Origin: an uncultured Candidatus Actinomarina sp.
GTDB lineage: Bacteria > Actinomycetota > Acidimicrobiia > Actinomarinales > Actinomarinaceae
NCBI GenBank assembly: GCA_902627635.1
Contig: CACOKA010000003.1
Coordinates: forward strand, 1 to 54,726
Direction: 5' to 3'
Length of the DNA stretch: 54,726 nucleotides
Position numbers and translations under genes: made by a program. How positions within the stretch are numbered: position 1 is the stretch's first letter; every line of letters begins with the position of its first letter. Shown in pieces: positions 21,338-42,745 of the stretch. The notes below the pieces were generated by a model that was not told where the DNA came from, did not search any database, and saw only the letters and a program-made list of their open reading frames with translations.

Positions 21338-21867
21338 TTCTTCAATATAGTTATATTACTTTGGCCGTATTTTTTTTCCTTATATAATTCTAGTCCTTCT
21401 GGATAAACAAATTGCACTGAACTTTTATGTCTATGAATAATAAGTTTTGAGTTTTCTGACATTAAATTATGAATAGTATTCAAATCCGAATTTATTTCAT
21501 TAACTATCAAAGAGTACGGAGGATCATAAAAGATAATATCAAATTTTTTTTCAGACTGGGTTATGTAATCGCTAACACTTAAAACAAGAACGGTATAGTT
21601 TTGATCAATATTAGAGAGATTTTTATCTATAATTTTTTTACAATCTGTTGAAGTATCAACAAAAGTAACAAAGCTTGCACCACGGCTTAATGCTTCAATC
21701 CCAAGAGACCCAGAACCTGCAAATAAATCAAGTACTAAAGAATCGTCAAAGTCATTCTGAAGTGAATTGAATATACCCTCTCGAGCCCTACTCATCATTG
21801 GTCGTGTTGATGCATCATTGATAGTTTTTATATTCAAACCTTTAAATTTTCCGGCAATAATTCTCAT
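21334..21867 (-). CDS. rsmD: 16S rRNA m2G966 methyltransferase
   Basis: MRIIAG, TRP, LDLFAGSGSLGIEALSRGA, DPPY. Confidence 0.95.
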   Translation of the reverse strand: MRIIAGKFKGLNIKTINDASTRPMMSRAREGIFNSLQNDFDDSLVLDLFAGSGSLGIEALSRGASFVTFVDTSTDCKKIIDKNLSNIDQNYTVLVLSVSDYITQSEKKFDIIFYDPPYSLIVNEINSDLNTIHNLMSENSKLIIHRHKSSVQFVYPEGLELYKEKKYGQSNITILKK

Positions 21868-23957: not shown

Positions 23958-24047
23958 AATCAAACAATACCTAAAAAGATTTAAAATCAAAGTACCTAAT
24001 AATTAATAGACAAGTTATAGTTATACTTGTATTTTAGAGGGAATTTT

Positions 24048-26810: not shown

Positions 26811-27887
26811 TTATCCAAGCTTTGATGCAATGTCTTTTGCACTTTTCAATGCAATTCCATCGGATCCAGTAAGTGACCAGTTATTGAATTGATTGGACAA
26901 TGCCTCATCAATCATAGAATCTAAAAGTTCAAATTTTGAACTATTAAGATTTTTCCACAAGTAAAGAGCATGGCTTCCAGGAATTGTGTTAATTTCATTT
27001 ACATATAATTTATTCTCATGAAGTAAAAAATCATATCTGTATATTCCACGTGTCGGAATTATATGATTTATTTTTTGAACCATGTCTATCAATTTTTTTT
27101 CTATTTGTTCACTAAGTTTCGCCGGTAATTCTCTTTTTGAACCCTCTAGTCCCCCATTTTCCAAATATTTGTCATTGTACGAAAATAGTGTTTCATTTTT
27201 AAGTGGTTTTTCTATCTCAGATATATCAAAATCTGGAAAGTTTCTAACACCAATGAGTAAATCTGTTGAATTTTCTAAATACTTTTCAATCACAGCCCCT
27301 TGTGAATATAAATCTGAATTTTTTATTAGTTTCTGTGCTGTTATTACATCATTTATTATCTCAACTCCAATAGAAGAACCACCAAAACGTGGTTTTAATA
27401 CAAAATTTTCTTCGATATTTATTTCATCAGTATTTATTAATTGTTTTTCGATCACTGGTAGGTCATTTTCTTTCATTAGAGTGTAAAAGGCATATTTATC
27501 CATACAAATTTGGGCAGAAACTTGGTCTGGACCAGTATATTTTATACCAAATATATTTAGTAATGACTGTAATGAGCCATCCTCTCCAGGTCCACCATGA
27601 CAAGCATTGACTATCACATCAAAATCTAATTTTTTTCTTTTTTGATAAAATCCTGGATCTTCGTTAAATTTCATCTCAAGTTTGTTTTTATATATTTTTT
27701 TATTATTTAAAAAATCTACAGATTCATATTCATTATTAACTAAATACCATTTATTATCTTTCGACCAATATAAAGCTACAACCTCATACTTTTTTGATAA
27801 AATTCGGACACTTTGTAATCCAGTAAGAATAGAAATATCGTGTTCGGGGGAAGGTCCACCAAATATGACACCAATTGTTTTACTCAT
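26811..27887 (-). CDS. ddl: D-alanine--D-alanine ligase family
   Basis: FGGPSPEHDISI, HGGPGEDG, CMDK, KPRFGGSSIGV, KY, NEINTIPG. Confidence 0.88.
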   Translation of the reverse strand: MSKTIGVIFGGPSPEHDISILTGLQSVRILSKKYEVVALYWSKDNKWYLVNNEYESVDFLNNKKIYKNKLEMKFNEDPGFYQKRKKLDFDVIVNACHGGPGEDGSLQSLLNIFGIKYTGPDQVSAQICMDKYAFYTLMKENDLPVIEKQLINTDEINIEENFVLKPRFGGSSIGVEIINDVITAQKLIKNSDLYSQGAVIEKYLENSTDLLIGVRNFPDFDISEIEKPLKNETLFSYNDKYLENGGLEGSKRELPAKLSEQIEKKLIDMVQKINHIIPTRGIYRYDFLLHENKLYVNEINTIPGSHALYLWKNLNSSKFELLDSMIDEALSNQFNNWSLTGSDGIALKSAKDIASKLG

Positions 27888-27892
27888 TTTAT

Positions 27893-29419
27893 TTAAGGAT
27901 AGTGGTCTGGTAAATCATTCTCATATAAAACAATATCTTCTGATTTTATAATAGAATTAAGATAGTTTACAGCTTCATCCCTGTTTGAAAAAATTTCGTA
28001 ATCAATATCATTCTCTTGAAATCCCGCTTTTAAAGAATTTTTATTTGTCTTACCAATAATGAGTGCTTTATCAATTATTTGACTTGCCTCTAATGCAAAA
28101 GCATAATTTATTGCATATTGATCACTACCAAGTTCGACCATTCCAGGGGTGACAAGATAACGTATAGATTCTTCATTTCCAAGCTCCTGAAGAGTCTCTA
28201 AACTGTATTGAATTCCCATGGGATTAGAGTTAAAGGAATTATCAATAATAGTGTGTCCTAAGTCACTATTAAAAATATTTTGACGATGTTTTGACTTATC
28301 AAGAGAGTCTGTTTTGTTAAGGTACTTTCTAACATCCAAATCTAATGCAAGCATAACTCCTATAGAAAGAGATATTGAAAGTTGTAGAAGTTTAGGACCA
28401 TTGATAGAACCTAATAAATTATTAGCAACGTAGATATCATGCTTACCGTTTTCATATTCAACACAAACTGTTGCTTCTCTCGTAGTAATAGAACAATCAT
28501 AAACATTTTTTTGATTTGTCCATAGCCTTGCTTCATTTAGGAGCATTTCGTCATCACCATTAATTACTACCGAACCGGCAAGTTCTACAATTTCAGACTT
28601 AGCATCAAGAATATTTTCTAAAGATTTCATTCTCTCTAAATGAACTGGGGCAATTCCAGTTATAACAGCAACATGTGGCCTAACCCATGAACAAATTTCA
28701 CGTATTTCCCCATTTGAATATGTTCCCATTTCGATAATTGCTAATTCGTGATCGTCATTAAATCCTTCATTGATTGATTTTGCTATCCCTAACCGATTAT
28801 TGTAACTTTCTGGAGTAACAAAAACATTATTTGATTCATCCAATATCTTTCCAAGTACATTTTTTGTTGTTGTTTTTGAGTATGAACCTGTTATTCCTAT
28901 TACAGGTATTGTCTTCGAGTTCAACTTTTTTGAGGCCTCATTAACAAACGATCTAGATTTATTTTTTTCATAATTGAACAAAAGCCTAAGTGCTTGATCA
29001 AAAATAAAAAAAGAAAACATATTTGCAGCTAAAGCAAGGAAGTAGCCATACCCTAAGGTGTAGGAAAAAATTGACACTAAAACGACAAGGATGTAATAAC
29101 AATAAGTTACTCGATTAAGACGTTCGGTTTTCTCAACTTTGCTTGTTCTTGACTTTAATGACAATCCAACGGGTGTGTAAATATTGATAACTGAAATAAT
29201 TATTGGAATATAAGGAAAGAAAAGAGAGATGATACAAAGAACTAATGTAATAAATAATATGAACCTATTTAATCCTCTTGATCTGACCCATCTAAAGTAA
29301 AATTTGGTAATGTAACCTGGAATGTAATGTTCTCTTTGAGCAATTCTTTGCCACCTAATTGCATTAAAACATGTTCCAATAGTAATTATCACTAATGTAG
29401 CTAAAGAGATTAAATTCAT
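27893..29419 (-). CDS. murF: MurF-like Mur ligase with N-terminal transmembrane region
   Basis: GITGSYSKTTTK, ESYNN, IEMG, HLE, DNSFNSNP, PGMVELG, ENDLPD; about 150 aa of hydrophobic N-terminal helices. Confidence 0.8.
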   Translation of the reverse strand: MNLISLATLVIITIGTCFNAIRWQRIAQREHYIPGYITKFYFRWVRSRGLNRFILFITLVLCIISLFFPYIPIIISVINIYTPVGLSLKSRTSKVEKTERLNRVTYCYYILVVLVSIFSYTLGYGYFLALAANMFSFFIFDQALRLLFNYEKNKSRSFVNEASKKLNSKTIPVIGITGSYSKTTTKNVLGKILDESNNVFVTPESYNNRLGIAKSINEGFNDDHELAIIEMGTYSNGEIREICSWVRPHVAVITGIAPVHLERMKSLENILDAKSEIVELAGSVVINGDDEMLLNEARLWTNQKNVYDCSITTREATVCVEYENGKHDIYVANNLLGSINGPKLLQLSISLSIGVMLALDLDVRKYLNKTDSLDKSKHRQNIFNSDLGHTIIDNSFNSNPMGIQYSLETLQELGNEESIRYLVTPGMVELGSDQYAINYAFALEASQIIDKALIIGKTNKNSLKAGFQENDIDYEIFSNRDEAVNYLNSIIKSEDIVLYENDLPDHYP

Positions 29420-30123
29420 CTTTTTATTATCTCAATAATTTGATCTTTTGAGGTATTCAAACAAAAATGATTTTCTTTATGCAACACAGTTAATTTAGAA
29501 TCAGGAATCAGACTATCAGCAATTTTTCCATTTTCAAGTGGAGCAATCAAGTCATGCTCTCCATAAACAAGTTGTACATTTGTATTTATCTTTGGAAGAA
29601 TTTCAGACATATTATGATTCACAGCCTTAACTAGTGTATCTCTCAAATCCTTATTGGCGTTTTTATAATCGTCAGAGCCATAATTTTTTTTAATCTTTTC
29701 CATTCTTTGATCACTAATAATATTTAAATTGTTCAAAAATTTAAATAATTTAAACAAAGAAAAAGGGCTTGGTTGAATAGGCGACCTTATAAGTGGTGAT
29801 CCAATTACAACTATTTTTTTATATTTTTTTAACTGAGATAAATGTACAGCAATCGTACCACCAAAAGAGTGACCGACAATTACCTCTACAGAATCTGGAA
29901 TTAACTCTACTAAATATTCTGCATAAAACTCAGGTGATCCGCTTTGCTCAAATGGCACCGATTTTCCAAATCCCGGAATATCAATAGCAATGCAATCAAA
30001 TTCTTTTGAAATATTTTTCCAGTCATTACTTTCTCCGCCCCAACCATGAAGAAAACAAATGCTTGGATTATTTGAATTAACTTGAGCATAAGTTAAATTA
30101 TCAGAAAGAATTTTAGCAATCAT
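29416..30123 (-). CDS. Alpha/beta fold hydrolase
   Basis: LHGWG, DIPGFG, GHSFGG nucleophile elbow, GEHD, terminal His. Confidence 0.9.
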   Translation of the reverse strand: MIAKILSDNLTYAQVNSNNPSICFLHGWGGESNDWKNISKEFDCIAIDIPGFGKSVPFEQSGSPEFYAEYLVELIPDSVEVIVGHSFGGTIAVHLSQLKKYKKIVVIGSPLIRSPIQPSPFSLFKLFKFLNNLNIISDQRMEKIKKNYGSDDYKNANKDLRDTLVKAVNHNMSEILPKINTNVQLVYGEHDLIAPLENGKIADSLIPDSKLTVLHKENHFCLNTSKDQIIEIIKR

Positions 30124-30494
30124 TAGTTAAGATATTCTCCAATAGTATTTATTGTTCTTATTTCAAGACCCATGAGATAAAGTAGAGCAATACCCCAATA
30201 AAGATAATATTTTTCATTCATTTGAAATCTATAAACGTACAAAAATGTAAGTGTAAATAGTACAACTACAGCATAAAACAAATAAAAAGACCCAATATTT
30301 TCATTCAATGTATAAGTATACGAAACAAGTAACGATTGAATTATCAATGAAATTACTGATATAAATATCAAAATATTTCCAATTTTTTTACTTTGATAGT
30401 TTTTCATGAAATTCATTATTAGCATGATAAACCCACTAATACCACAAATTGTAGCACTGACCATTCCTATAAAGTTTAAGGTACTTGTTTCCAT
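30123..30494 (-). CDS. Hypothetical membrane protein (about 4 TM helices)
   Basis: Hydrophobic ORF; 1-nt overlap with the hydrolase; -10 TAAAAT 6 nt before ATG. Confidence 0.75.
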   Translation of the reverse strand: METSTLNFIGMVSATICGISGFIMLIMNFMKNYQSKKIGNILIFISVISLIIQSLLVSYTYTLNENIGSFYLFYAVVVLFTLTFLYVYRFQMNEKYYLYWGIALLYLMGLEIRTINTIGEYLN

Positions 30495-30554
30495 TAAATC
30501 ATTTTAATAGCTATTAAATTGAGTATTTATGGTATTTCAGTTACAGTAAAATCT

Positions 30555-31823
30555 ATGTCTGCGCAAAGTATGAGTTCAATTAAAAAAAATGTTCCTTCAG
30601 CATGGTATCCAACAATGGATTCTTTTATAGCTAAAGGTAAAAATGCAGAAATTTGGGATAAAAATAATAAACGTTACTTAGATTTTGTAGGTGGATATGC
30701 CGTCCTTAATACCGGACATTTAAACCCAAGAGTTGTGAGAAGAGTTAAAAAACAATTGAATGACTACTCACATTCATGCTTTGCATTTGCACCACATGAA
30801 AATGCTGTTGAGCTTTGTGACCAAATAAATAAAAGATATCCAATAAATCAAAAAACGAAAACCTTCCTTGTAAATAGTGGAGCTGAAGCAGTAGAAAATG
30901 CTATAAAAATAGCAAGGTATGCAACCGGCAGAGAAAAAATAATTGCATTCAAAGGGGGGTTTCATGGAAGAACTTACTTGGCTATGGGTTTAACTGGCAA
31001 AGAAAAACCATATAAAGTAGGATTTGGACCTTTTCCAAAATTTATAACCCATATTGATTTTCCTTATGATTACAGAGGTATATCTGATGATAAAGTTATA
31101 AAACAACTTCAAAACTTAATTTCCAAAAAAATTGACCCTAATGATATTGCTGCAATAGTCGTTGAAATTCAATTAGGTGAAGGAGGATACATACCTGCAT
31201 CCAATGGATTTCTTAAAAAACTCAGAGAGATAACCAAAAAACATAACATTTTGTTAATTTTTGATGAAGTTCAAACAGGATTTGGAAGAACTGGTGAAAT
31301 GTTTGGTGCAACAAAAGTAAATGTTGAGCCTGACATGGTTACTTTAGCTAAAGGTATTGGTGGGGGCTTTCCTCTTGCAGCTGTTGTTGGTAAATCTAAA
31401 ATTATGGACTCTGTTCATGATGCAGGAATTGGTAGTACATTTGGCGCTTCACCAATTTCATGCGCTGCTGCTCTTGGAGTACTGGATGTTTTTGATAAAG
31501 ACAATCTCCTACAAAAAGTACACAAGCAAGAATTAATTATGGAGAAATCACTTGAAACCATGAAAGAAAATTTTGAGTTTATTGGAGATGTTAGGGGTTA
31601 TGGAATAATGAAGGGTGTAGAAATTGTCGAAAATAAAGAAAATAAAACAGCATCTAAAGAATTGGCGACGAAAATCATAAGTAATTCAAAAAAGAATGGA
31701 TTGCTTCTTGTGAACTGTGGAAAAGAGGGAAACGTGATAAGGTTTATGGGTCCTTTAACTGCACCATTAAATCAAGTAAGAGAGGCAATGGAAATGTTTA
31801 ATAATGCTTTGGAGAAAATTTAA
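30555..31823 (+). CDS. gabT: Class III aminotransferase, 4-aminobutyrate aminotransferase-like
   Basis: YLDFVGG, NSGAEAVENA, FHGRT, FDEVQTGFGRTG, AKGIGGGFP, GSTFG; start ATG 30555 with TACAGT 7 nt upstream. Substrate is inferred. Confidence 0.8.
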   Translation: MSAQSMSSIKKNVPSAWYPTMDSFIAKGKNAEIWDKNNKRYLDFVGGYAVLNTGHLNPRVVRRVKKQLNDYSHSCFAFAPHENAVELCDQINKRYPINQKTKTFLVNSGAEAVENAIKIARYATGREKIIAFKGGFHGRTYLAMGLTGKEKPYKVGFGPFPKFITHIDFPYDYRGISDDKVIKQLQNLISKKIDPNDIAAIVVEIQLGEGGYIPASNGFLKKLREITKKHNILLIFDEVQTGFGRTGEMFGATKVNVEPDMVTLAKGIGGGFPLAAVVGKSKIMDSVHDAGIGSTFGASPISCAAALGVLDVFDKDNLLQKVHKQELIMEKSLETMKENFEFIGDVRGYGIMKGVEIVENKENKTASKELATKIISNSKKNGLLLVNCGKEGNVIRFMGPLTAPLNQVREAMEMFNNALEKI

Positions 31824-32893
31824 TCTTCTTGATGTGTAAGTTCATGTAACTTTTTTAAAGTATCAGAATCTTTTGCAGCTTTAGCAGGAGCCTTCATTAA
31901 CCAAGCTGATACTAAATCAAGAGATTCTAAATCATCTCTATCTTTAAAAAATTTCATATATCTAACAGCATCAATTACAACACCTGCACTGTTTGGTGAA
32001 TCCCATACTTCTAATTGAACTTCTATATTAAGAGGTACTCCACCAAATGATTCACCCTCTAAGCGAATAAATGCTTTTTTTCTATCTTCAAGCCATTCGA
32101 CATAATCTGATGGACCGATTCTAACATTTTTTGGATCCATTCCTCTACCTTTGTTTGCAACAGATGTAACTGAAGACGTTTTACTTGTTCTTTTTGTTTC
32201 AAGACGATCCTCTTCAAGCATATTAAGAAAATCCATATTTCCACCAACATTCAATTGATAAGATCTTTTTAAATTAACCCCCCTATCAGAAAACAATTGA
32301 GCTAGAACTCTATGAACAATTGTTGCACCAACTTGACTTTTAATGTCGTCTCCAATAAGAGGGACATTATTGTCTTTAAACTTTTTATACCATTCATCAT
32401 CTCGGGCAATAAAAACAGGTATGCAATTTATGAACCCAACATTTGCAGCAATCGAACAATCAGCATAAAATTTAACCGCCTCATCAGATCCAACTGGAAG
32501 TAAATTTATTAATATTTCTGCACCAGATTCTTTTAAATCATTAATGATAGTTTCCGAATCTTCAGTAGGGTCAATAATGTCTTCTACAAATTTACCTATA
32601 CCGTCAAGAACTTTTCCTGGTTTTACTTTTACACCTAAATTAGGTACTTCGGCGAATTTTACAGTATTGTTTGGTTCTTGAAATATTGCTTCCGACAAGT
32701 CTTTTCCCACTTTTGATTTATTAATATCAAATGCACAAACAACTTCAATATCAGAAACACGATAGCCGCCAATTACATCTGAAATTAAACCATTTTCTTC
32801 TTGTTCACTTTTATAATATTCAAGTCCCTGTACAAAAGAGCTAGCACAGTTTCCTACTCCTAAAATTGCAACGTTTATTTTTGAATCGGTCAT
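31820..32893 (-). CDS. ino1: myo-inositol-1-phosphate synthase
   Basis: GVGNCASS, LPVGS, GDDIKSQVGATIVHR, QLNVGGNMDFLNM, VWDSPNSAG. Confidence 0.95.
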   Translation of the reverse strand: MTDSKINVAILGVGNCASSFVQGLEYYKSEQEENGLISDVIGGYRVSDIEVVCAFDINKSKVGKDLSEAIFQEPNNTVKFAEVPNLGVKVKPGKVLDGIGKFVEDIIDPTEDSETIINDLKESGAEILINLLPVGSDEAVKFYADCSIAANVGFINCIPVFIARDDEWYKKFKDNNVPLIGDDIKSQVGATIVHRVLAQLFSDRGVNLKRSYQLNVGGNMDFLNMLEEDRLETKRTSKTSSVTSVANKGRGMDPKNVRIGPSDYVEWLEDRKKAFIRLEGESFGGVPLNIEVQLEVWDSPNSAGVVIDAVRYMKFFKDRDDLESLDLVSAWLMKAPAKAAKDSDTLKKLHELTHQED

Positions 32894-32940
32894 TAGATTA
32901 CTCTAACTGATATGGGATATAACAAAAATAACAACTAGGT

Positions 32941-33057
32941 TTAACCACCAAATATATGGTTGTACCAACTTGCTGAATTATATAAAATTGCAACTAAGAA
33001 ATATAGAACAAAGGAAATAATTCCAATAATTTGTAGTACTTTAAGAAATAATGACAC
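32941..33057 (-). CDS. Small membrane protein, 38 aa (not in ORF track)
   Basis: GTG start: MSLFLKVLQIIGIISFVLYFLVAILYNSASWYNHIFGG*; fills an otherwise empty gap; TAACCT 6 nt before the start. Confidence 0.6.
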   Translation of the reverse strand: MSLFLKVLQIIGIISFVLYFLVAILYNSASWYNHIFGG

Positions 33058-33099
33058 AAATTAAGGTTAATTGAATATTTTCAAAACAATAAAAATATT

Positions 33100-34848
33100 T
33101 TAAGAATAATCGACATTAGATAATTTTTCTAAATTTGACTCAATAATGCTATACGTATCCATCAATTCTTTAATTTGTAATATTACTTTTGAACATAAAC
33201 TAATCATATCTTCAAAGTGAGGTTTGAAATTTTTGTTTGAGTTAGTTAAATCATCATAGTTCATTGTTTCAAGAGTTTTTAATTTATCTAACGATAAAGT
33301 GAGAAATTCCATAAAGCTTTTTTTGCCAAGGTAACTTAATTTATCTTTTCTGAATAACTTAAATTCAATTAATTTTTCTAAATCAGCAATGTAATCGGAC
33401 TCATTAAAATTATCAACTTCATTGAAATCATTCCAAATTATCCAGTGTCTACGAATGTCATCTATTTGTAATTTAAAATCATTTTCATAATCTAAAAGTA
33501 AAGATGTAAATGTATCATCTTGTAAATTATTCAAAATATCACTGATTATTTTCCAGTGATCGGTTTCGGAAATTTCACTGCTTAATTTAACAAGAGTTTT
33601 TTGATTTGGAACTAAAAAGGTATTCAATATATCATCATTTTTTTTAAGATTATCCAAGTTTGCAAGTTCTTGAAGTAACTTTTTTGTTTTGTTGGAGGCC
33701 TTTAATACTTCAGAATTTTCGATTTTTTGAGATTGTATTGATTTTAAGATTCTATGCAGGTTCTTTAAATCTTTAGATTTTAAATCTTCAAAATTTTTTT
33801 GAAACGCTAAATCTAAATCATTTATTTTGTAGAAGATATTTTTTACAGACTTCTGTATGTTGTCGTCAACTTTACTAAGACCTCCCAAATGTCTTAATTT
33901 TGTAAGTTTTGACTCTAAAATACTTGTGTCAATTTTTGTATATTGATCAATCCATATAGAACAACTGTGCTTATACCAACACCAATTACACAAGTGATTA
34001 ATTTTTGGTTGCCAAACATCAACTAATTTCTTATTTGTAAAGTTATTAATATCAGAAACGGTTTTTTTTGACATTTTTTCATAAGAGTTAACATAGTATT
34101 TTTCATTTTTATCAATATCCCTAATCGGTACTTCAAAAATTCTTTTTTCAGGATTTATATTTTTATTTCCAAGAAAGTAAATAAATCCACTTTCAATATT
34201 GTCTTCACCGTAAAGTAAAGCATAAGATTTTATCTGATCTGATTTTTCCTTATCTAATTTTGAGGGAGGTTTACCTGTTTTTATATCTATAATTATATGT
34301 TTGTCATTATATGTTTTTTGCAATCTATCGACATAGCCCCTTAAAACAAAAGTATCTTGACTTGAAGTAAATTCTTTTTTTAAAAATAATTCATTTTCAA
34401 TTTTTAATTCACCGATTGTTGACAAATCTTTAGAAAACTTGAGAAATTCAAAATTACTTTTGTTTTGAATCCAGTCTTCTAACTCAATGTAGTTTTTTAT
34501 CAATTCATTTATCCATTCCTCAAGGTTTTCAAACTCATTGTTGACTTTGCTCATTTGATTTACATATAACGATGTCAAGTATTTCTCTTGTTTGACCCAG
34601 AGCTCTTCGTATGAATCTTGAAGATAATTAAAGGTTTTTTCCCAGTTAAAATATGGATTTTTATTATCAGGATTCTTATAGTAATTTTCTATTACAGAAT
34701 GAACAAACGTACCAACTGCTGCATGAATGCTTGAGGGTTCACTTATACTTTCCAAATAATTAAATGAAAATTTTCTTTCACAATTTGAAAATGATGATAC
34801 TTTTGAATGTGAAAGAGGACTAATTTTTTTGAGATTGCTTTTTTCCAT
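33100..34848 (-). CDS. PD-(D/E)XK nuclease (RecB/AddB/Cas4-like, four-Cys Fe-S staple) with ~280-aa helical C-terminal extension
   Basis: LSHSK..CERK, GTFVHSVIE, LRGYVDRL, IIDIKTG, QIKSY, CNWCWYKHSC. Confidence 0.85.
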   Translation of the reverse strand: MEKSNLKKISPLSHSKVSSFSNCERKFSFNYLESISEPSSIHAAVGTFVHSVIENYYKNPDNKNPYFNWEKTFNYLQDSYEELWVKQEKYLTSLYVNQMSKVNNEFENLEEWINELIKNYIELEDWIQNKSNFEFLKFSKDLSTIGELKIENELFLKKEFTSSQDTFVLRGYVDRLQKTYNDKHIIIDIKTGKPPSKLDKEKSDQIKSYALLYGEDNIESGFIYFLGNKNINPEKRIFEVPIRDIDKNEKYYVNSYEKMSKKTVSDINNFTNKKLVDVWQPKINHLCNWCWYKHSCSIWIDQYTKIDTSILESKLTKLRHLGGLSKVDDNIQKSVKNIFYKINDLDLAFQKNFEDLKSKDLKNLHRILKSIQSQKIENSEVLKASNKTKKLLQELANLDNLKKNDDILNTFLVPNQKTLVKLSSEISETDHWKIISDILNNLQDDTFTSLLLDYENDFKLQIDDIRRHWIIWNDFNEVDNFNESDYIADLEKLIEFKLFRKDKLSYLGKKSFMEFLTLSLDKLKTLETMNYDDLTNSNKNFKPHFEDMISLCSKVILQIKELMDTYSIIESNLEKLSNVDYS

Positions 34849-34883
34849 AAATACTTTATTTTCTAACTATATACTAAATAATA

Positions 34884-36323
34884 ATGAAATTAGATGAATC
34901 ACAGTCTTTCTTTCTCCAGAAGTTCAAAGACCATACTGAAAACTTCGATGTTGATTTTTTGATACTTACTGGTTCAGCCGGAACAGGTAAAACTGAACTT
35001 ATCAAAAAATGTGTAGAATATTTAAAAATTAATAATTTTGGCCATCAATGTCTAGCTTTTACTGGAAGAGCAGCATCTGTGCTTAGATCAAGAGGTTTAG
35101 AAAATGCAAAAACTATAGATTCGTGGTTATATCGTTTAAACAATAAAGACACATACGAAAAAGAATTAAATCCATACGATAATTTTATTTTTTTTATAGA
35201 TGAATCATCAATGATTTCAAATAGTGCAATTATTTTTGATGAAAAAGAACCTGAACTAGATTTCAAACTTGATGAAATAATGTGGTCGACTTTTAGACAT
35301 ATAAATTGTAAAAATATTCTTTTTATATTTGTAGGTGATAAAAATCAACTGCCTCCATTAAAGCACGATTATTGTCCAGCACTAAATGAAGAATACTTAA
35401 CAAATAGATATGGACTGTCAGGTAAAAGTTATTCTCTTAAAACAATGCATAGGCAAACAAGTGAATCTAACATTCCAAAACTTGCTGAAAATTTTATAAG
35501 TTTTGATAACGAGATTATTAGAGCGATTCCTTCGATCGAAAAAATTGAAAAAGATGTTCAAATAATTGAAAATTCAGAAGTAGTAGATATATTTTTCGAT
35601 TTATATTTCGAAAATAAACATGATGTCAAAATTATTACCGCAACCAATAAAAAAGCAGATTATTACAATTTTTTGATTAAAGAAAAATTAAGTACAGGAA
35701 AATCAAAATTTTTTACTCCTTATCAAATACCAAAAGATAATTTAGAACCACAGAAAGGAGATATTCTTCAAATATTTGCAAACTCTTCAGGGATTTTTGA
35801 TTTTCCAATGTTTAATGGTCAATTTCTTGAAGTTTTAGAATTAGGTAGTGTTTCAGAGACAATTTTAAAAAAAGGCAACCGTATCTTTGACAACATTCCT
35901 TTCATTACGCAGCAACTAACAGTTGATACAATATCCGATAGTGGAGAAAGAGCTGGTAATCCTCAGACTATTGAAATATCAATTGACCACTTAATAAACA
36001 GTTATATTTTAACCAAACAAGAATATGAATATTTTGATAAAAAAGATAAAGGCATGCTTTACAAAATTAAAGATTATATCAGTAAGATTGATTCAAAAAG
36101 AGTTTACTTTAATAAACTTTACAATCCAGTTCTAACAAGATATGGGTATGCAATAACTGGACATAAAGCGCAAGGTGGTGGTTGGAAAAATATTATTATT
36201 GATTTTTCAGGTTTTAATGATGATATGGGGCACTTGCCTCCTAGCTGGATATATACAGCTATTACTAGAGCTAAATCAAACCTTTTTGTAGCTAATTATC
36301 CAATTGAGGAAAAAAATGAGTAG
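34884..36323 (+). CDS. SF1B RecD/Dda-like ATP-dependent DNA helicase
   Basis: GSAGTGKT, AFTGRAA, IDESSM, GDKNQLPP, MHRQ, YAITGHKAQG, YTAITRAK. Confidence 0.88.
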   Translation: MKLDESQSFFLQKFKDHTENFDVDFLILTGSAGTGKTELIKKCVEYLKINNFGHQCLAFTGRAASVLRSRGLENAKTIDSWLYRLNNKDTYEKELNPYDNFIFFIDESSMISNSAIIFDEKEPELDFKLDEIMWSTFRHINCKNILFIFVGDKNQLPPLKHDYCPALNEEYLTNRYGLSGKSYSLKTMHRQTSESNIPKLAENFISFDNEIIRAIPSIEKIEKDVQIIENSEVVDIFFDLYFENKHDVKIITATNKKADYYNFLIKEKLSTGKSKFFTPYQIPKDNLEPQKGDILQIFANSSGIFDFPMFNGQFLEVLELGSVSETILKKGNRIFDNIPFITQQLTVDTISDSGERAGNPQTIEISIDHLINSYILTKQEYEYFDKKDKGMLYKIKDYISKIDSKRVYFNKLYNPVLTRYGYAITGHKAQGGGWKNIIIDFSGFNDDMGHLPPSWIYTAITRAKSNLFVANYPIEEKNE

Positions 36324-37062
36324 TAGCAGAGAAGTCTGGGAAAAATATTGGAATAGCAAAGTTACCAATGATGAAAGTAAAATTTTTGGACTAATTGATG
36401 CTTTACTAAGTCCTTTGAATATAGATGAGAGAAAATTCGTACTTACAAAACCGATATCATTATCAAGGTCTATATCAATTGTTTATAGATTGATTCATTA
36501 CAATTTTTTTAATATTGAAGAAGATAATGAAGAAATAGTAAAAGTAATTGAACCATTAGATTTACCTAATATCGATATTAAAAGTTCAAAAACATTTTCA
36601 AATAGTGGAGACTTCTCTCCATACAACACTCATTCAAGAGAATTATTTAAAGATTGGTGCCTTAATCAAATCAGTCAAGTAGATCCAAATTTACCAAATA
36701 GAACCCAAAGATTTGATTTAAATGAAATGAAAATGATAAAAAATTACTGGGACAATGCAGTTGACTATGAGCTTTATGAAAACTACCAATATACACTAAA
36801 AAACTTTGAATCAAGTATAAAAAAACTAGATAGTGAGACAAAACATAAATTAGAGGAAAAAATAATTTCTATATCAAGTAAATTTACAAAGGAAGATACA
36901 AGGTCTTTTACAGCGTTGATTCTATCAAATAATGAATTGAGAGACGAAATATTAGCGATTAGTGATGAGGATATTACAAAATATATAGAAGAAATACTTA
37001 AAAGGCTAAAAGATGATAATATTCAATATCAGCAATTGAAAAGCAAACTGATATTTGATTAA
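36316..37062 (+). CDS. Hypothetical protein (helical, acidic)
   Basis: Long ORF overlapping the helicase stop by 8 nt with SD GAGG; no motif recognised. Confidence 0.75.
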   Translation: MSSSREVWEKYWNSKVTNDESKIFGLIDALLSPLNIDERKFVLTKPISLSRSISIVYRLIHYNFFNIEEDNEEIVKVIEPLDLPNIDIKSSKTFSNSGDFSPYNTHSRELFKDWCLNQISQVDPNLPNRTQRFDLNEMKMIKNYWDNAVDYELYENYQYTLKNFESSIKKLDSETKHKLEEKIISISSKFTKEDTRSFTALILSNNELRDEILAISDEDITKYIEEILKRLKDDNIQYQQLKSKLIFD

Positions 37063-37064
37063 TT

Positions 37065-37271
37065 ATGATACAAAAATGTACGTGTGGATCAGAACAAAAT
37101 CACTCTATCTTTTGTTCAGGTAGTTTTTACAAGGATCCACTACGAGAACCAAAATATAAGCCTAAAAGTTCAGATGAAAAAACTTGTGATCAATGCTTCT
37201 TAATCTTAAACAAATCAGAGTTTATTGTTGGCTCAGAGACTTGTAAGAATTGTCATTCTCAACCAGTTTAA
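37065..37271 (+). CDS. Small Cys-rich putative zinc-binding protein
   Basis: CTC-x5-H-x3-C plus CDQC and CKNC; 2 nt after the preceding stop. Confidence 0.65.
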   Translation: MIQKCTCGSEQNHSIFCSGSFYKDPLREPKYKPKSSDEKTCDQCFLILNKSEFIVGSETCKNCHSQPV

Positions 37272-37279
37272 AGATAAAT

Positions 37280-38542
37280 CTACGGAAATAATCCTCTAGT
37301 TAATTTTGCAGCAGCCACTTTTTTAATTCCTTTTATTAAAGCAGCTGTTCTTAAGTCAACTTTATTTTTTTCAGAAATAATCCATACCTCTTCAAAGGCT
37401 GAGGTTAGAACATCGATCAATCGTTCATGTAGTTCTTTTTCTTTCCATAAATAGTTTTGTGTATTTTGAACCCATTCAAAATAACTAGCAGTAACGCCGC
37501 CTGCATTAGCAAGAATATCAGGTATTAGTAAAACTCCATTTTCCCTAAGTATTTTATCTGCACTAAGAGTTGTTGGAGAATTTGCGCCCTCAGCAATAAT
37601 TTTTGCTTTAATATTTTCTGCGTTATTTGATGTTATAACACCGCCAACAGCGGCAGGAATCAAAATATCACAATCAATTTCCAAAATTTCATCGTCAAAA
37701 TTGTCGGCACCATCAAAATCCTTTACAGTTTTATTTTTAGCTGTGTGTTTAAAAAGTTCAGGAATATTAATTCCATCCTTATTATAAATAGCACCGCCTA
37801 GATCATTTACAGCAATCACTTTTGCTCCTCTTTCGTATGAGTCAAGAGCTGCATACCGCCCAACATTTCCAAATCCTTGGATAACAATTGTTGAGTTTTC
37901 ATATTGTAAATTTAATTTATTTAAAGCTGCGTTTGCAATGGCTATAACACCTCTTCCGGTTGCTTCTCTTCTTGTGATAGAACCACCAAGTGAAGCTGGT
38001 TTTCCAGTTACAATTCCTGGTTGTGGTGACCCAACGAAATTACTGTAGGTATCCATGATCCATGCCATAGTCTGTTCATCTGTTCCAAGGTCTGGACCTG
38101 GAATATCCTTATCAACACCAATCAATGGTAATAATTCAGCCGTGTATCTTCTTGTTACTCTTTGTTTCTCTTGTTTTGAAAGGGGGTTTGGATCAATTGC
38201 AACACCACCCTTTGCTCCACCATAAGGTAAACCTACTATTGCTGACTTCCATGACATCAAAATTGCCAGTGCTGTAACCTCTCCTAAATTTACATTTGAA
38301 GCATATCTAATACCACCTTTAGTTGGTCCCATTGATAAAACATGTTGTACTCGATATCCAATTACAGTTTCTACCTCATCATACTCATCTCTTCTGAATG
38401 GAAATGTCACTGTAAGTGCTCTTTGAGGGAGTTTCAATCTTTCTTTAATATTTGAATCAAGATTAATGAATTCAGTTACTTCATCATATTGCTTGATGAC
38501 CTCTCTATACATGCCTGACTCGAAAAGGTCTGAATTACTCAT
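37280..38542 (-). CDS. gdhA: Glutamate dehydrogenase (Glu/Leu/Phe/Val family)
   Basis: GPTKGGIRY, GGAKGG, DIPGPDLGT, GFGNVG, EGANSP, PDILANAGGVTASYFEW. Confidence 0.93.
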   Translation of the reverse strand: MSNSDLFESGMYREVIKQYDEVTEFINLDSNIKERLKLPQRALTVTFPFRRDEYDEVETVIGYRVQHVLSMGPTKGGIRYASNVNLGEVTALAILMSWKSAIVGLPYGGAKGGVAIDPNPLSKQEKQRVTRRYTAELLPLIGVDKDIPGPDLGTDEQTMAWIMDTYSNFVGSPQPGIVTGKPASLGGSITRREATGRGVIAIANAALNKLNLQYENSTIVIQGFGNVGRYAALDSYERGAKVIAVNDLGGAIYNKDGINIPELFKHTAKNKTVKDFDGADNFDDEILEIDCDILIPAAVGGVITSNNAENIKAKIIAEGANSPTTLSADKILRENGVLLIPDILANAGGVTASYFEWVQNTQNYLWKEKELHERLIDVLTSAFEEVWIISEKNKVDLRTAALIKGIKKVAAAKLTRGLFP

Positions 38543-38595
38543 TACATGGCTATATTATTCTAAAAAACAACTTGTTGTATGTTTTTTTACATTTT

Positions 38596-38618
38596 TTGTC
38601 ATATCCGTTTTCTATTAT
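38596..38618 (+). promoter_or_regulatory. Promoter with PafBC/RecA-NDp-like geometry: tTGTCA-N11-TATTAT
   Basis: TGTCA 38597-38601, 11-nt spacer, TATTAT 38613-38618, then 7 nt to ATG 38626. Confidence 0.5.
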
Positions 38619-38625
38619 TTCTTTT

Positions 38626-38742
38626 ATGAAAAATAACAAAATTGAAGATATTCTTAAATCATGCGGATTGGAAGCAGTGATTGTTTGCTACCAACATAAT
38701 GACAGCTGTAAATGTCATGAAGATTATAGAAAAGCCGCTTAG
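38626..38742 (+). CDS. Cys/His-rich micro-protein, 38 aa, ending in -AA (not in ORF track)
   Basis: MKNNKIEDILKSCGLEAVIVCYQHNDSCKCHEDYRKAA*; ATG at leaderless distance from the -10 box; stop lies just before the SD of the next gene. Confidence 0.6.
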   Translation: MKNNKIEDILKSCGLEAVIVCYQHNDSCKCHEDYRKAA

Positions 38743-38755
38743 TTTAGGAGTAAAT

Positions 38756-39316
38756 ATGAGTAATAATTTAGATGAAATATTGTCTTTAACAAAAGAGATA
38801 ACATATCAGGATGGTGATGACTTTGATATTACTGTTACTGAATATGGAGAAGAACTTTCCAAAACAAACGATATTGAGTTCCTTTGGATAGCCAGAAATA
38901 CTAGCTCAACCGTAAAAAAAGCAACTACAAATATTAAGTCTTTTAATGATCAAAATATTGCAAAAAACGTTGAAGAAAATGGACCTGTAAGGCTTGGAGA
39001 TGAAGTATTTGTATTTAACAAATCTTACAATTGGAAAGTTCAAAATTTAAGAAAATTTATTGAGTGGATTATTGAAAAATCAGATAACAATGAAGAGCTA
39101 GTTGAATCATTACTTGCAATACTTGGACAAACCTTTGTTCCAAAATTAAAGGGACTTGATGCTTTTTCAAATTCTAAAAATATTAATCCTGAAATGATTC
39201 GTGACACTTTTTTGTATAAAGAATGGAAAGAAAAAGCTGACTTGAAGAGTATAAATACAAATAACAGCACCGCCCCAAAATGGGCAAAAGAGCTAGGTCA
39301 TAAAGAAAGGAAATAA
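38756..39316 (+). CDS. Hypothetical protein, phage recombination-module-like
   Basis: SD AGGAG at 38746-38750 before ATG 38756 (ORF-track start 38681 is probably too long); TAATG coupling to the Rad52-like gene. Confidence 0.75.
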   Translation: MSNNLDEILSLTKEITYQDGDDFDITVTEYGEELSKTNDIEFLWIARNTSSTVKKATTNIKSFNDQNIAKNVEENGPVRLGDEVFVFNKSYNWKVQNLRKFIEWIIEKSDNNEELVESLLAILGQTFVPKLKGLDAFSNSKNINPEMIRDTFLYKEWKEKADLKSINTNNSTAPKWAKELGHKERK

Positions 39317-39744
39317 TGAATCAATTATACGAACTATCAAGACAATTTCCAGATGAGTGGATAAAACCCGCTCCAAAAGGAAAATTTGGAAACTATATTC
39401 CACATTCTGTCATTACTCAAAGACTTCTAGAAGTATGTGGGCCTTTCAATTGGGAGGTTGTTCAATTAATCAGACAAGAAAATAATGGAAAAGTAGTTGG
39501 TTGCTTTGGCAAACTGACAACACAAATTGATGGTAAATCAGTAACCATAACATCTATTGGAGATGTTGAACACGATCAAGGAAGTGATGGTATGAATGCT
39601 AAACATGCTGAATCAGATGCCTTCAAAAGATGTGCTATGAAAGTTGGTCTTGGATTACATCTTTGGGCTGGTGAAGAATATTACTTAGATAAAAAACTTA
39701 GCGAAGCTGAAGGAAAGAAAAACATAAAGTTACAATCTGCTTAA
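39316..39744 (+). CDS. Rad52/Rad22-family single-strand annealing protein (Sak/DdrA-like core)
   Basis: YIPHSVITQRLLEVCGPFNW, beta-strand core, KHAESDAFKRCAMKVGLGLHLW, matching the family signature K.A.(S/T)DA.KR.....G.G..L. Confidence 0.82.
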   Translation: MNQLYELSRQFPDEWIKPAPKGKFGNYIPHSVITQRLLEVCGPFNWEVVQLIRQENNGKVVGCFGKLTTQIDGKSVTITSIGDVEHDQGSDGMNAKHAESDAFKRCAMKVGLGLHLWAGEEYYLDKKLSEAEGKKNIKLQSA

Positions 39745-40196
39745 CTCTGTATTTTTCCATCCCTTGATTCAATAAACATTGTTAAGGGGCCATCGTTAAC
39801 AAGTGAAACTTCCATTAAAGCACCAAAAATACCCTGCTTTACTGTACAACTATCAGAAAAAATCTGAGCAACATCATCGATCATTTCTTTTGCGATCTCA
39901 GGATCTTGAGAATTTATAAATGACGGCCTATTTCCTTTTTGAATATTTCCACTTAATGTGAATTGACTTACTAAAAGTATCTCTCCCCCTGCATCAATTA
40001 TTGATTTATTCATTTTTCCATTTTCATCAGAAAATATTCTTAAATTAATAATCTTCTTTGTCAAAGTTTCTATATCTTCTGAAGTATCACCTTTTTCGAT
40101 ACACCATAAAAGTAAATAACCACAGTCAATATTTGAAACTAAAGCGTTATCGACTTTCACAGAAGCAGATTTAACTCTTTGCAAAACAACTTTCAT
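39741..40196 (-). CDS. dtd: D-aminoacyl-tRNA deacylase
   Basis: MKVVLQRV, LRIFSD, VSQFTL, GNRPSF, NDGP. Confidence 0.96.
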   Translation of the reverse strand: MKVVLQRVKSASVKVDNALVSNIDCGYLLLWCIEKGDTSEDIETLTKKIINLRIFSDENGKMNKSIIDAGGEILLVSQFTLSGNIQKGNRPSFINSQDPEIAKEMIDDVAQIFSDSCTVKQGIFGALMEVSLVNDGPLTMFIESRDGKIQS

Positions 40197-40215
40197 AATA
40201 TTCTATGATAATTAT
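40197..40215. promoter_or_regulatory. 19-bp bidirectional leaderless promoter
   Basis: TATGAT(+, 40204-09) 6 nt before ATG 40216 overlaps TATCAT(-, 40210-05) 8 nt before the dtd ATG. Confidence 0.55.
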
Positions 40216-40635
40216 ATGGGATTAGATAAAAAAACGATTGCAATGGCAAAAGAGCCTAATTATGCAACTTTAACTACACTTTTTAAAAGTGGTGCCCCCC
40301 AGACACATGTAATGTGGGTTGACACAGATGGTGAAAATATCTTAATAAACACAGAAATCCACCGAAGAAAATATTTAAATGTTCAAGATGATCCAAGAGT
40401 TAATGTAATGATCTGGAAACATGACAATGAATTTAAATTTGTTGAAATTAGAGGTGAAGTAGTAGGTGAAATTACCGGGGAAGATGCTTTAAAAAATATT
40501 AATGATTTATCACACAAATATTGGAATAAACCATATCCATTCGAAATTCAATCTGAAAGAATAATTTTAAAAATAAAAGCTAAAAGAGAATTCTTTTTCA
40601 ACCTTAAAGATCAAGATTTTGAAGGTTTGTCGTAA
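40216..40635 (+). CDS. PPOX-class F420-dependent oxidoreductase (FDOR-B-like)
   Basis: ATLTTL..SGAPQTHVMWV, NT..RRKYLNV..DPRV, VEIRG, LSHKY. Confidence 0.85.
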   Translation: MGLDKKTIAMAKEPNYATLTTLFKSGAPQTHVMWVDTDGENILINTEIHRRKYLNVQDDPRVNVMIWKHDNEFKFVEIRGEVVGEITGEDALKNINDLSHKYWNKPYPFEIQSERIILKIKAKREFFFNLKDQDFEGLS

Positions 40636-41477
40636 TTATAAAAACCTTCTCCTGTTTTTACGCCCAATTTTCCGTCTTTAACTTTTTCTTCTAAAAATTT
40701 CTTGGGTTTATCTTTTAGATTTTTTGTCTCGTTATAGATTTTAAGTTTTGAATAGTAACTAATGTCCAATCCTGAGTAATCAGTCAATTCAAATGGGCCT
40801 AATGGATGGTTCAATCCTTTCTTAATAGCCAAGTCTATATCTTTGAAGTCGGCTATCCCCTCATCATATAGTTCGTAGGCCTCATCAACTAACGCACCTA
40901 ACATCCTGTTTACAATAAAGCCTGGGGTTTCTTTTTTTAACGTTACGACTGTCCTTCCCATTAAATTACTTAATTCTTTAGTCCTATCAACCACTTCTTT
41001 ATTAGTAGATTCTGGAAATGAGATTTCAATAAGATCCATTCTTAATGGTGGGTAGAAGAAATGCATGTTTATAAATCTTTCAGGATGTTTACAGTGTTGT
41101 GCAATTTCTGACGCAGCTATAAATGAACTATTTGTCGCAAGAACTACATCTTTATCAAGTATGTTTGAAATAGAGGCAAAAATATCTTTTTTTACGTCAA
41201 ACCTCTCAACCACTGCTTCTATTACAAATGTTTTATCATTTACTACTGTTTCGAGTGAATCATAAACTTTGAGATTTTGATTGTAATTATCTAAGTTTTC
41301 TTTTTGTAATAAGTCTTTAGATACTAAATTTTCAATATTGTCTTTAGTAAAAATTAATTTACTTTCTAAATATTCTTTATTGTTATCAAAGATACTCGTT
41401 TCATGACCAGACATTGCTGATAAAGCAGCAATCTGACTTCCCATTTGTCCACCACCAATAACAGCAACTTTTTCCAT
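40611..41477 (-). CDS. 3-hydroxyacyl-CoA (3-hydroxybutyryl-CoA) dehydrogenase
   Basis: GGGQMG, IEAVVE, ATNSS, MHFFYP, PGFIVNR, HPLGPFEL.D, GKLGVKTGEGFY. Confidence 0.92.
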   Translation of the reverse strand: MEKVAVIGGGQMGSQIAALSAMSGHETSIFDNNKEYLESKLIFTKDNIENLVSKDLLQKENLDNYNQNLKVYDSLETVVNDKTFVIEAVVERFDVKKDIFASISNILDKDVVLATNSSFIAASEIAQHCKHPERFINMHFFYPPLRMDLIEISFPESTNKEVVDRTKELSNLMGRTVVTLKKETPGFIVNRMLGALVDEAYELYDEGIADFKDIDLAIKKGLNHPLGPFELTDYSGLDISYYSKLKIYNETKNLKDKPKKFLEEKVKDGKLGVKTGEGFYNYDKPSKS

Positions 41478-41479
41478 AA

Positions 41480-42685
41480 TTATCTATGTTTGTTAATTTC
41501 TCTTCTTGCAATTGATCTTAAATGAACTTCATCTGGCCCATCTGCAATTCTTAATACTCGAGCTCCAGCAGACATTCTTGCCAATGGTGTATCTTGAGAT
41601 AACCCCATTGCACCATGTGTTTGTATAGCTTTATCAATTACATAAGAAGCAGCCTCAACAACAGATACTTTTATAGATGAGATTTCTATTTTTGCCTCTT
41701 CTTTACCAACTGTATCGATTAGCCAAGCAGTTTTTAAAGTAAGCAGTCTTGCTTCTTCTATTTTTATTCTTGACCGAGCAATCCAATCCTGAATAACACC
41801 CTGTTCAGCTAATTTTTGACCAAATGTTTCTCTTTCAAGTGAGCGATCAATCATCAGAGATAATGCTCTCTCTGCCATTCCTATAGCCCTCATGCAATGA
41901 TGTATTCTTCCAGGTCCAAGCCTTGCTTGTGCTATCTTAAAACCCATTCCCTCTCCCCCAATGATGTTAGATTTTGGAACAACAACATTTTCAAATAAAA
42001 GCTCTGGATGTCCTGTATATCCATCGTCATATCCGAATACTTGCATTGGTCTAATTATTGATAATCCTTCGCTATCCATAGGAACTAATACCTGACTTTG
42101 CCTCTGATATGGTGGACTATCTGGATTTGTTACGCCCATAAAGATACATATTTTTGCGTTTGGATTTATTGCGTTTGAAGTCCACCATTTTCGACCATTT
42201 ATTACATAATTATCTCCATCACTGACAATTGAACTTCCTATATTTGTAGCGTCTGAAGAGGCAACATTTGGCTCTGTCATTGCAAAGCATGATCTTATTT
42301 TGCCTTCGAGAAGCGGTTCAAGCCATTGTTTTTTTTGCTCTGCTGTTCCAAATTCATTTAAGATTTCCATGTTTCCTGTATCTGGGGCAGAACAATTAAA
42401 CACTTCTGGTGCCCACCAATTATGACCTGTGATTTCAGCTAATGGTGCATAATCAACATTTGATAATCCGTATCCATATTCATTATCAGGAAGAAATAAA
42501 TTCCACAAATTTTCACTTTTAGCTTTTGATTTAAGCTCCTCCAAAATTTCGGGAATATGTAGTGGATCTCCTGAGTCAATAATTGCTTTCTCATATAATT
42601 CCTCATTTGGATAAATATGATCAGAAAAAAAAGTTTTTAGCTTATCTTGTAATTCAAGTGACTCTTTAGAGAAATTAAAATCCAT
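41480..42685 (-). CDS. Acyl-CoA dehydrogenase, ACAD10/11 (LvaC-like) subfamily
   Basis: FNCSAPDTGNME, AMTEPNVASSDATNI, QARLGPGRIHHCMR, LRIADGPDEVH. Confidence 0.92.
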   Translation of the reverse strand: MDFNFSKESLELQDKLKTFFSDHIYPNEELYEKAIIDSGDPLHIPEILEELKSKAKSENLWNLFLPDNEYGYGLSNVDYAPLAEITGHNWWAPEVFNCSAPDTGNMEILNEFGTAEQKKQWLEPLLEGKIRSCFAMTEPNVASSDATNIGSSIVSDGDNYVINGRKWWTSNAINPNAKICIFMGVTNPDSPPYQRQSQVLVPMDSEGLSIIRPMQVFGYDDGYTGHPELLFENVVVPKSNIIGGEGMGFKIAQARLGPGRIHHCMRAIGMAERALSLMIDRSLERETFGQKLAEQGVIQDWIARSRIKIEEARLLTLKTAWLIDTVGKEEAKIEISSIKVSVVEAASYVIDKAIQTHGAMGLSQDTPLARMSAGARVLRIADGPDEVHLRSIARREINKHR

Positions 42686-42745
42686 TATTCTTATTGTATC
42701 AATTTAAACTTCTGAACCAAAAAACTTTCATTAATATGTTCTTAA

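Follow-up and report, generated by a model that had tools for sequence, protein, structure and literature searches.

Helicase motors accompany nucleases of the RecB family in the AddAB, AdnAB and RecBCD enzymes, and RecBCD also defends against linear phage DNA. Hachiman (HamAB), Gabija (GajAB) and Nhi are helicase–nuclease systems that act in defence. Here, we describe a four-gene cassette from an uncultured Candidatus Actinomarina sp., in which a Cas4/Dna2-like nuclease and a superfamily 1B (SF1B) helicase are encoded head-to-head, together with two further proteins. The window analysed is the whole stretch of 54,726 nucleotides of contig CACOKA010000003.1, and positions refer to it unless another contig is named. 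With a confidence slightly above even, we interpret the cassette as a horizontally exchanged accessory module in which a helicase, a nuclease and at least one further protein are inherited together, and whose most likely role is defence against phages (foreign DNA).

The cassette is flanked by ino1 and gdhA. The long nuclease gene (33100-34848, minus strand) encodes a protein of 582 amino acids with a Cas4/Dna2-like PD-(D/E)XK domain. A divergent intergenic gap of 35 bp (34849-34883) separates its start from that of the gene for the SF1B Dda/RecD-like helicase (34884-36323, plus strand; 479 amino acids). The third gene (36316-37062, plus strand) shares its first 8 nt with the end of the helicase gene and encodes an orphan protein of 248 amino acids when read from its ATG; an alternative TTG start at 36304 would give 252 amino acids, and the homologues have 248. 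It is followed after 2 nt by the gene for a Cys-rich protein of 68 amino acids with two predicted Zn sites (37065-37271, plus strand), the stop of which lies 8 nt from the stop of the convergent gdhA. A preliminary description of the locus had already reported a nuclease that faces away, across 35 bp, from a coupled run of three genes, and all of these open reading frames (ORFs), their coordinates and their coupling are borne out. The divergent gap contains a TATACT hexamer, similar to a -10 element, 10 nt upstream of the helicase ATG, and its sequence is conserved within the clades of the cassette family described below, with a clade-A consensus beside the helicase start. A promoter and terminator scan stayed at background (30 found against 28.8 expected) and is uninformative in such AT-rich DNA.

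The nuclease is recognized by the Pfam families PDDEXK_1 (E 2.5e-22) and Dna2 (PF08696; E 7.6e-6, 26.2 bits against a cut-off of 22.4) and by the PHROG family 'exonuclease' (E 4.3e-22). Its N-terminal domain (residues ~1-300) bears a four-Cys Fe-S staple and is followed by an all-helical, family-specific C-terminal domain (~305-582). The staple residues C23, C287, C290 and C296 are invariant in 13 members of the nuclease family, as are D174, D188, K190, Q205, Y209, R319, H320, G322, G323, W432 and W469. We take D174, D188-x-K190 and Q205..Y209 to be the catalytic motifs of the RecB family; the RHxGG motif, W432 and W469 sit in the C-terminal domain. The AlphaFold2 (AF2) model has a mean predicted local distance difference test score (pLDDT) of 69.3 and shows the C-terminal domain as helical. 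By VIA-align, the best structural match is Dna2 (5ean_A; Z 11.1, root-mean-square deviation 4.3, 192 residues aligned), followed by AdnA (Z 9.9) and AddA (Z 9.7), and the modelled N-terminal domain also resembles Cas4/ACE1. Fold searches with the C-terminal domain returned only generic helical bundles (Z up to 10.6, within the noise of the tool for helical models), a protein atlas search with this domain gave no usable match, and the family profile matched none of the sequences of solved structures. The long nuclease forms a separate family of 46 clusters, mostly ~580-650 amino acids long and arranged in three identity tiers; the few shorter clusters are probably truncated. Clade-A members share 61-67% identity with the window nuclease in the N-terminal domain and 30-33% in the C-terminal domain, which therefore evolves about twice as fast. 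Identity with the CRISPR-associated Cas4 was considered and rejected, as TIGR00372 is matched with 22.5 bits against a cut-off of 65. A CRISPR context was rejected as well: apart from the helicase gene, the nuclease is surrounded by ino1, gdhA and genes of metabolism, and no repeat array was found in 32700-37500.

The helicase contains the Pfam domains AAA_19 (1.8e-18), AAA_30 (1.7e-14), UvrD_C_2 (3.5e-9) and PIF1 (1.1e-5) and matches the Dda-like helicase family of PHROG (E 5.4e-52). Its closest solved structures are the Dda-like helicase 9kwf_B, RecD2 (3e1s) and Pif1. All motor motifs are intact, and Walker A (G30-T37), D106/E107, G151-D152..Q155-P158, R190/Q191, T425-G431 and Y457..R462 are invariant in 13 sequences. 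The helicase subfamily comprises 41 clusters with identity tiers similar to those of the nuclease family. In PADLOC, the helicase matches three PDC-M16A models (E 5.8e-68 to 2.2e-52); the best match spans profile positions 4-475 of 691 and leaves the C-terminal ~215 positions uncovered. The helicases of distant cassettes also match PDC-M16A. A complex prediction for the helicase with residues 300-582 of the nuclease scored 0.00 (mark 0.32), which is no answer and weighs neither way.

More distant PDC-M16A-like helicases also occur without the long nuclease in two genus genomes, at L129 (G030:C8:11000-25000) and L002 (G017:C10); they comprise 684 amino acids, including a C-terminal extension, and 511 amino acids. 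No further PDC-M16 component was matched among the neighbours of these related helicases in G030 and G017. The helicase gene of G030 adjoins PDC-M33A/C-like genes, and a clade-B cassette (L061) is flanked in the same way, with identities of 44-52%.

The linkage of nuclease and helicase was scored from the nuclease side in 41 metagenome loci with a long-nuclease match at E<=1e-20, of which 38 were testable; several of them are near-identical contigs, so that not all loci are independent. In all 38, the helicase gene lies on the opposite strand, head-to-head with the nuclease gene and ~32-58 bp from it, start to start. The preliminary description had allowed for the case that the two genes are unlinked in relatives, and this was found in none of the testable loci. 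The converse statement, that every helicase of the subfamily is accompanied by a nuclease, is based on matching family sizes and tiers rather than on gene contexts. The identities of nuclease and helicase to the window copies are correlated (r=0.96, n=21). The N-terminal domain of the third gene follows the helicase in 30 of 32 loci by tblastn, and the remaining two (L068 and L087) carry the clade-C form of this gene, as seen with the third gene of L068 itself as the query.

Clade-C cassettes contain an additional helicase gene, encoding ~620-635 amino acids, which converges on the third gene in all 13 loci that reach past the latter (L067, L068, L070, L072-L076, L078, L080, L081, L083 and L087). 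This second helicase carries UvrD_C_2 where it was scanned, matches a NERD-helicase model of PADLOC in the two copies scanned (for L068, RTasNERD-Hel, E 1.7e-29) and shares 49-98% identity among loci. It may be a fourth component of clade C or a co-travelling single-gene system.

The preliminary description had judged by eye that the region is more AT-rich than gdhA and ino1, and the computed values confirm this: the GC content is 27.1% for the cassette, 36.0% for gdhA, 33.0% for ino1 and 32.9% for the genome. Only 2 of 1324 equal-sized genome windows have a GC content as low as the cassette or lower (standard deviation 2.3 points). The boundaries of the swap are sharp. The closest species representative (G030, locus L014) aligns by blastn with 90.5% identity up to position 33048 and with 92.3% identity from 37281 on, and nothing is alignable between these breakpoints. 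The swapped segment (33049-37280) is 4.23 kb long and replaces a 1.02-kb segment (1022 bp) of G030, which holds a short nuclease of 327 amino acids. A contig in run X17 joins positions 33035 and 37281 of the window via 1035 other letters and represents the same short allele. In two DNA runs, the summed word depth is ~10-26 over the cassette contigs and ~34-526 on the flanks; as this depth derives from contigs only, it is indicative and does not give a share of cells. Contigs of the RNA libraries barely cover the cassette, which, for a minority genotype and with contigs only, says nothing on its expression.

Low GC content and sharp swap boundaries would also be expected if the cassette were the remnant or cargo of a mobile element, i.e., a phage- or plasmid-type Dda-like helicase and a Cas4-like exonuclease that are selfish or neutral and have no function at the host level. 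The assignment of both enzymes to phage protein families in PHROG points in the same direction. Nevertheless, we hold this explanation to be improbable. No integrase, replication initiator or structural genes were seen among the ORFs in 27000-43000 (Pfam scans of the cassette and flanking ORFs), neither significant direct repeats nor att-like sites were detected beside the cassette, and no tRNA was found in the window. Pattern scans of 2.9 million IMG/VR viral contigs yielded only relatives of the nuclease N-terminal domain and no helicase of the subfamily, and the closest phage helicase is only 29.8% identical to that of the cassette. Furthermore, all catalytic and motor motifs have stayed invariant in three deep clades with preserved gene order and spacing, which indicates selection on function.

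The distribution of the cassette is sporadic. The third gene was found in one of 64 genus genomes, which is that of the window itself, and the helicase in three of 65 genomes of the order (E<=1e-20), where the two other copies show 33-39% identity and have different surroundings. A scan of one genome per species for 185,579 species found no long nuclease and only distant relatives of its N-terminal domain; it used two peptide patterns and would miss members that lack them. The cassette was found beside gdhA and/or ino1 in eight metagenome loci (L049, L050, L054-L059), in which gdhA is 76-98% identical to that of the window. In L072 and L077, clade-C cassettes abut a decarboxylase gene, whose product is 94-96% identical (~90% at the DNA level) to that of the genus members G007, G016, G013 and G014, and these four genomes keep the short nuclease between gdhA and ino1. 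Thus, the cassette circulates within the genus at two or more loci. Overall, it appears to be confined to low-GC marine contigs, which belong at least partly to a single genus.

The gene displaced by the cassette is widespread in the genus. With the nuclease as the query, 32 of 36 other genus genomes yield only an ORF of ~326-377 amino acids, with 28-35% identity over the N-terminal domain (best hits); in L007, gdhA and ino1 flank this short nuclease, which has the opposite orientation. The displaced short nuclease is homologous to the nuclease of the cassette, with 28% identity by tblastn. A further copy was not found in the assembly of the window, which is 77% complete and comprises ~0.8 Mb, compared with ~1.0-1.1 Mb in relatives at the genus level.

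These observations bear on a second alternative, in which the cassette is an end-resection module for DNA double-strand breaks, a split Dna2/AddAB-like machine that replaces and upgrades the short nuclease and supplies RecA or a Rad52-like annealase with 3' tails. A Rad52-like annealase gene is indeed present 2 kb away (39316-39744, 142 amino acids; Pfam 23.8 bits against a cut-off of 20.3; PHROG single-strand annealing protein, E 1.2e-12), and the preliminary description had joined it with the cassette into a lambda-Red-like resect-and-anneal pathway. This link is not peculiar to the cassette. Of the 63 other genus genomes, 56 contain the annealase, always near the short-nuclease locus, and none of the 63 matches the third gene. 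Since the annealase is found near the short nuclease in genomes without the cassette, its link belongs to the locus and not to the cassette. Of the co-occurrence suggested earlier for the four genes and the annealase, the strict linkage of nuclease and helicase holds, and the tie to the annealase does not. In the genus genomes, ~2-3 kb separate the annealase from the short nuclease, with gdhA and a protein of 211 amino acids without known family in between; the observation refers to 38681-39744 of the window, to L007 and to genus genomes. In four phage contigs (L119, L120, L122 and L124), both the annealase and the short nuclease have homologues, which lie side by side (31% and 33% identity), and the core annealase and the short nuclease may represent a domesticated phage-type annealase–exonuclease repair pair.

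The repair enzymes of the genus also leave room for a function in resection. As proposed in the preliminary description, adnAB, addAB and recBC were searched for and none was found. Four near-complete relatives each contain only one UvrD-family ORF of ~711-727 amino acids, and no strong RecD-like ORF was found in them: their AAA_30 matches are weak (E 4e-10 or worse), and the most consistent one is an ORF of 332-344 amino acids present in all four. Thus, by these searches, the genus lacks RecB, AddA and AdnAB-type enzymes. The window itself contains an ORF of 708 amino acids (21864-23990, minus strand) with a weak AAA_30 match (23.7 bits, below the cut-off), and an ORF of ~706-714 amino acids is kept in relatives.

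Because the cassette took the exact site of a homologous nuclease in a genus without a RecBCD-type enzyme, resection remains a competing reading, and it gains from the apparent lack of a second short nuclease, from the resemblance of the nuclease domain to Dna2, AdnA and AddA, and from the nearby annealase, homologues of which are paired with short-nuclease homologues in the four phage contigs. Even so, we judge it rather unlikely. Repair machines are normally part of the core genome, whereas this cassette is present in only one of the 64 genus genomes, has a foreign composition and accounts for a minority of contig depth. For clade C, the cassettes are located elsewhere, and the representatives of these species retain the short nuclease, so that simple substitution does not describe the cassette. 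Distant members lie among defence genes. In addition, the annealase is conserved in genomes that never match the third gene, and fast evolution, as seen in the nuclease C-terminal domain and in the third gene, is unusual for housekeeping repair.

Searches of Pfam, PADLOC, NCBIfam and PHROG assigned the third gene to no family. Its protein is represented by 3 clusters among 5.8 billion proteins and has 15 matches among 1.84 billion representatives, most of which are confined to residues 4-100. Across the family, only the N-terminal ~100 amino acids are conserved, and the C-terminal half is variable. Most relatives carry a zinc-ribbon insert (CPxC..DNR..PDFxC), which the window copy lacks. The AF2 model is helical (pLDDT 68), and fold searches gave no significant match (best Z 6.0; Foldseek E>=0.68). 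The profile of the third gene matched no sequence of a solved structure, and the protein atlas gave no usable match. Elsewhere in the genome of the window (G000), a solo protein of 124 amino acids (C16:18688-19062, corresponding to L132:688-1062) is 61% identical to the clade-B form of the insert (CPxC..DNR..PDFxC..WWL). The zinc-ribbon domain, which has no Pfam family, exists in this genome also as a solo gene.

In the 68-residue protein, the predicted Zn sites are formed by C5, C7, H13 and C17 and by C41, C44, C60 and C63. These residues are invariant in an alignment of 7 homologues with a mean column identity of 67%. The protein matches DUF4193 with 19 bits, below the cut-off of 25 bits, and has no detectable relationship to the insert with the zinc ribbon in the third gene (E 0.26). 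Homologues follow the third gene in the clade-A loci L049, L050, L052 and L054-L059, and lie on the far side of the nuclease in the clade-B loci L064 (4776-4964) and L065 (8965-9153). In L064 and L065, the homologue is located directly upstream of a SAD/SRA-HNH gene, with a slight overlap. A further neighbour of a clade-B cassette has a relative in the genome of the window: at a contig end (G000 C15:20077-21355, corresponding to L133:1577-2855), a protein of 174 amino acids is 44% identical to L061:2664-3239 and is followed by a Cas4-like PDDEXK_1 protein of 280 amino acids. This pair may constitute a further small accessory nuclease module.

The clade-B and clade-C cassettes lie among genes of the defence type. 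These include genes for TIR (ThsB-like), SLATT, SAD/SRA-HNH and GmrSD_C proteins, two C5 methylases, DndB/DpdB-like proteins, DpdE/DpdF-like helicases, type III Mod/Res, NERD-UvrD helicases and PDC-M33A/C-like proteins. By our own tally, defence-type domains occur in ~20 of 68 clusters of neighbouring non-cassette ORFs, although not every cluster was scanned. A role in defence is favoured by these neighbourhoods, and likewise by the strict co-inheritance, the intact active sites, the sporadic and mobile distribution, the foreign composition and the fast-evolving peripheral domains. The match of the helicase to PDC-M16A, the second locus within the genus and the lack of members in IMG/VR viral contigs add to this. 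The preliminary description had left the choice between a minimal split resection machine and an undescribed defence module; the latter is now better supported by the linkage, the sporadic cassette of foreign composition and the defence neighbours, and the former is kept as a rival.

Several points weigh against a defence function. The tally of neighbours stands without a background control, and the loci behind it are not all independent. The cassette of the window is flanked by the housekeeping genes ino1 and gdhA and not by defence genes, and some relatives (L071, L072 and L077) have housekeeping neighbours as well. The cassette contains no methylase or other evident determinant of self and non-self, and PDC-M16 has itself no more than candidate status. 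Moreover, the cassette displaced a nuclease with 28% identity to its own, and, since no second copy was found in the 77%-complete assembly, this may reflect a functional substitution. Finally, clade-A cassettes share this locus even in contigs in which gdhA has only 76-86% identity to that of the window, which would also fit a long-resident gene.

If the cassette acts in defence, its domains suggest the following mechanism. The SF1B helicase would load on a free 5' single-stranded tail or a DNA end and move in the 5' to 3' direction. It would feed the strand to the Fe-S PD-(D/E)XK nuclease, with which it might form a physical complex, in a way comparable to Dna2 or to the AddB/RecD side of end-processing machines. 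The putative substrate would be linear or replicating DNA of an invader, which the pair would degrade processively. The helical C-terminal domain of the nuclease, the variable C-terminal part of the third protein with its zinc ribbon (absent in the window copy) and the 68-residue protein could contribute to regulation or target sensing.

A more far-reaching proposal, which we consider tentative and doubtful at present, combines both functions. In a genus without RecBCD, AddAB or AdnAB-type enzymes, a minimal split Dna2-like machine would circulate as a swappable cassette and provide innate immunity against linear invader DNA, and at one locus it would have displaced the housekeeping short nuclease that partners the core annealase. 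If this is true, defence and break repair would be interchangeable alleles of one locus, and the cassette would represent a new defence family of several proteins, in which both the helical domain and the zinc-ribbon domain are new. Streamlined marine bacteria are described, in the available part of PMC7771536, as lacking identifiable mobile elements, toxin–antitoxin systems and CRISPR systems; the size of ~1 Mb, the GC content of 32.9% and the actinobacterial genes suggest that the genome of the window belongs to this group. A conserved helicase–nuclease cassette of three to four genes that moves between loci and is found among TIR, SLATT, GmrSD and Dnd-like genes would mean that these abundant ocean bacteria carry a defence pangenome, hidden because contigs are short at such regions and because these are missing from species-representative genomes. 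The locus is also a natural example of one site that can be occupied either by a defence-like module or by a probable repair nuclease.

Among candidate and established defence systems, PDC-M16 is linked to the cassette through component A, whose profile the helicase matches in part (positions 4-475 of 691); no other PDC-M16 component was found among the cassette proteins at E<=0.1. The available part of the bioRxiv preprint 10.1101/2024.01.29.577857 refers to Tables S3-8 for its 145 PDC systems, and a literature search found no paper that mentions PDC-M16. Hachiman, Gabija and Nhi share with the cassette the logic of a helicase–nuclease pair encoded in defence islands, but their motors belong to SF2 or SF1A and their nucleases to other families. 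In PADLOC, HamA, HamB and GajA did not match the cassette proteins and GajB gave no better than E 2.7e-5; the Nhi match was to a NERD-UvrD gene that neighbours distant cassettes and not to the cassette itself. Cas4-like nucleases of pfam12705 have been functionally linked to helicases, partly in defence contexts, in the available part of PMC5704561. The links given there are limited to fusions or operons with UvrD (SF1A) and to COG1205 (SF2), and the term 'RecD' is absent from that text. A full-text literature search found no paper that pairs 'Dda-like' with 'Cas4-like'. A system composed of a Cas4-like nuclease and a Dda/RecD-like helicase has no earlier description in the literature searched.

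Among recombination and repair systems, lambda Red and RecET combine an exonuclease with a co-located annealase, whereas the Rad52-like gene of the window lies beyond gdhA and is distributed independently of the cassette. The cassette shares the combination of a helicase with a RecB-family nuclease with AddAB, AdnAB and RecBCD, and the AddB and AdnA nucleases have the same four-Cys cluster fold. In contrast to these core enzymes, whose SF1A UvrD-like motors are fused to nucleases in subunits of at least 1000 amino acids, the nuclease of the cassette has no P-loop or ATPase domain, its motor is a separate small SF1B protein and its distribution is sporadic. With Dna2, the cassette shares an Fe-S PD-(D/E)XK nuclease, for which Dna2 is the best structural match, and an SF1B motor, whose 5' to 3' polarity is predicted for the cassette. 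Different from Dna2, in which both activities reside in one polypeptide, nuclease and helicase are encoded by two genes on opposite strands, 35 bp apart. The motor of Dna2 is Upf1-like and that of the cassette Dda/RecD/Pif1-like (AAA_11 15.5 bits against a cut-off of 27; no match to AAA_12). Furthermore, the cassette adds the helical C-terminal domain of the nuclease as well as the third and fourth proteins, and it is accessory, whereas Dna2 belongs to the core. The cassette provides a compact Dna2-like nuclease–motor pair that is amenable to testing.

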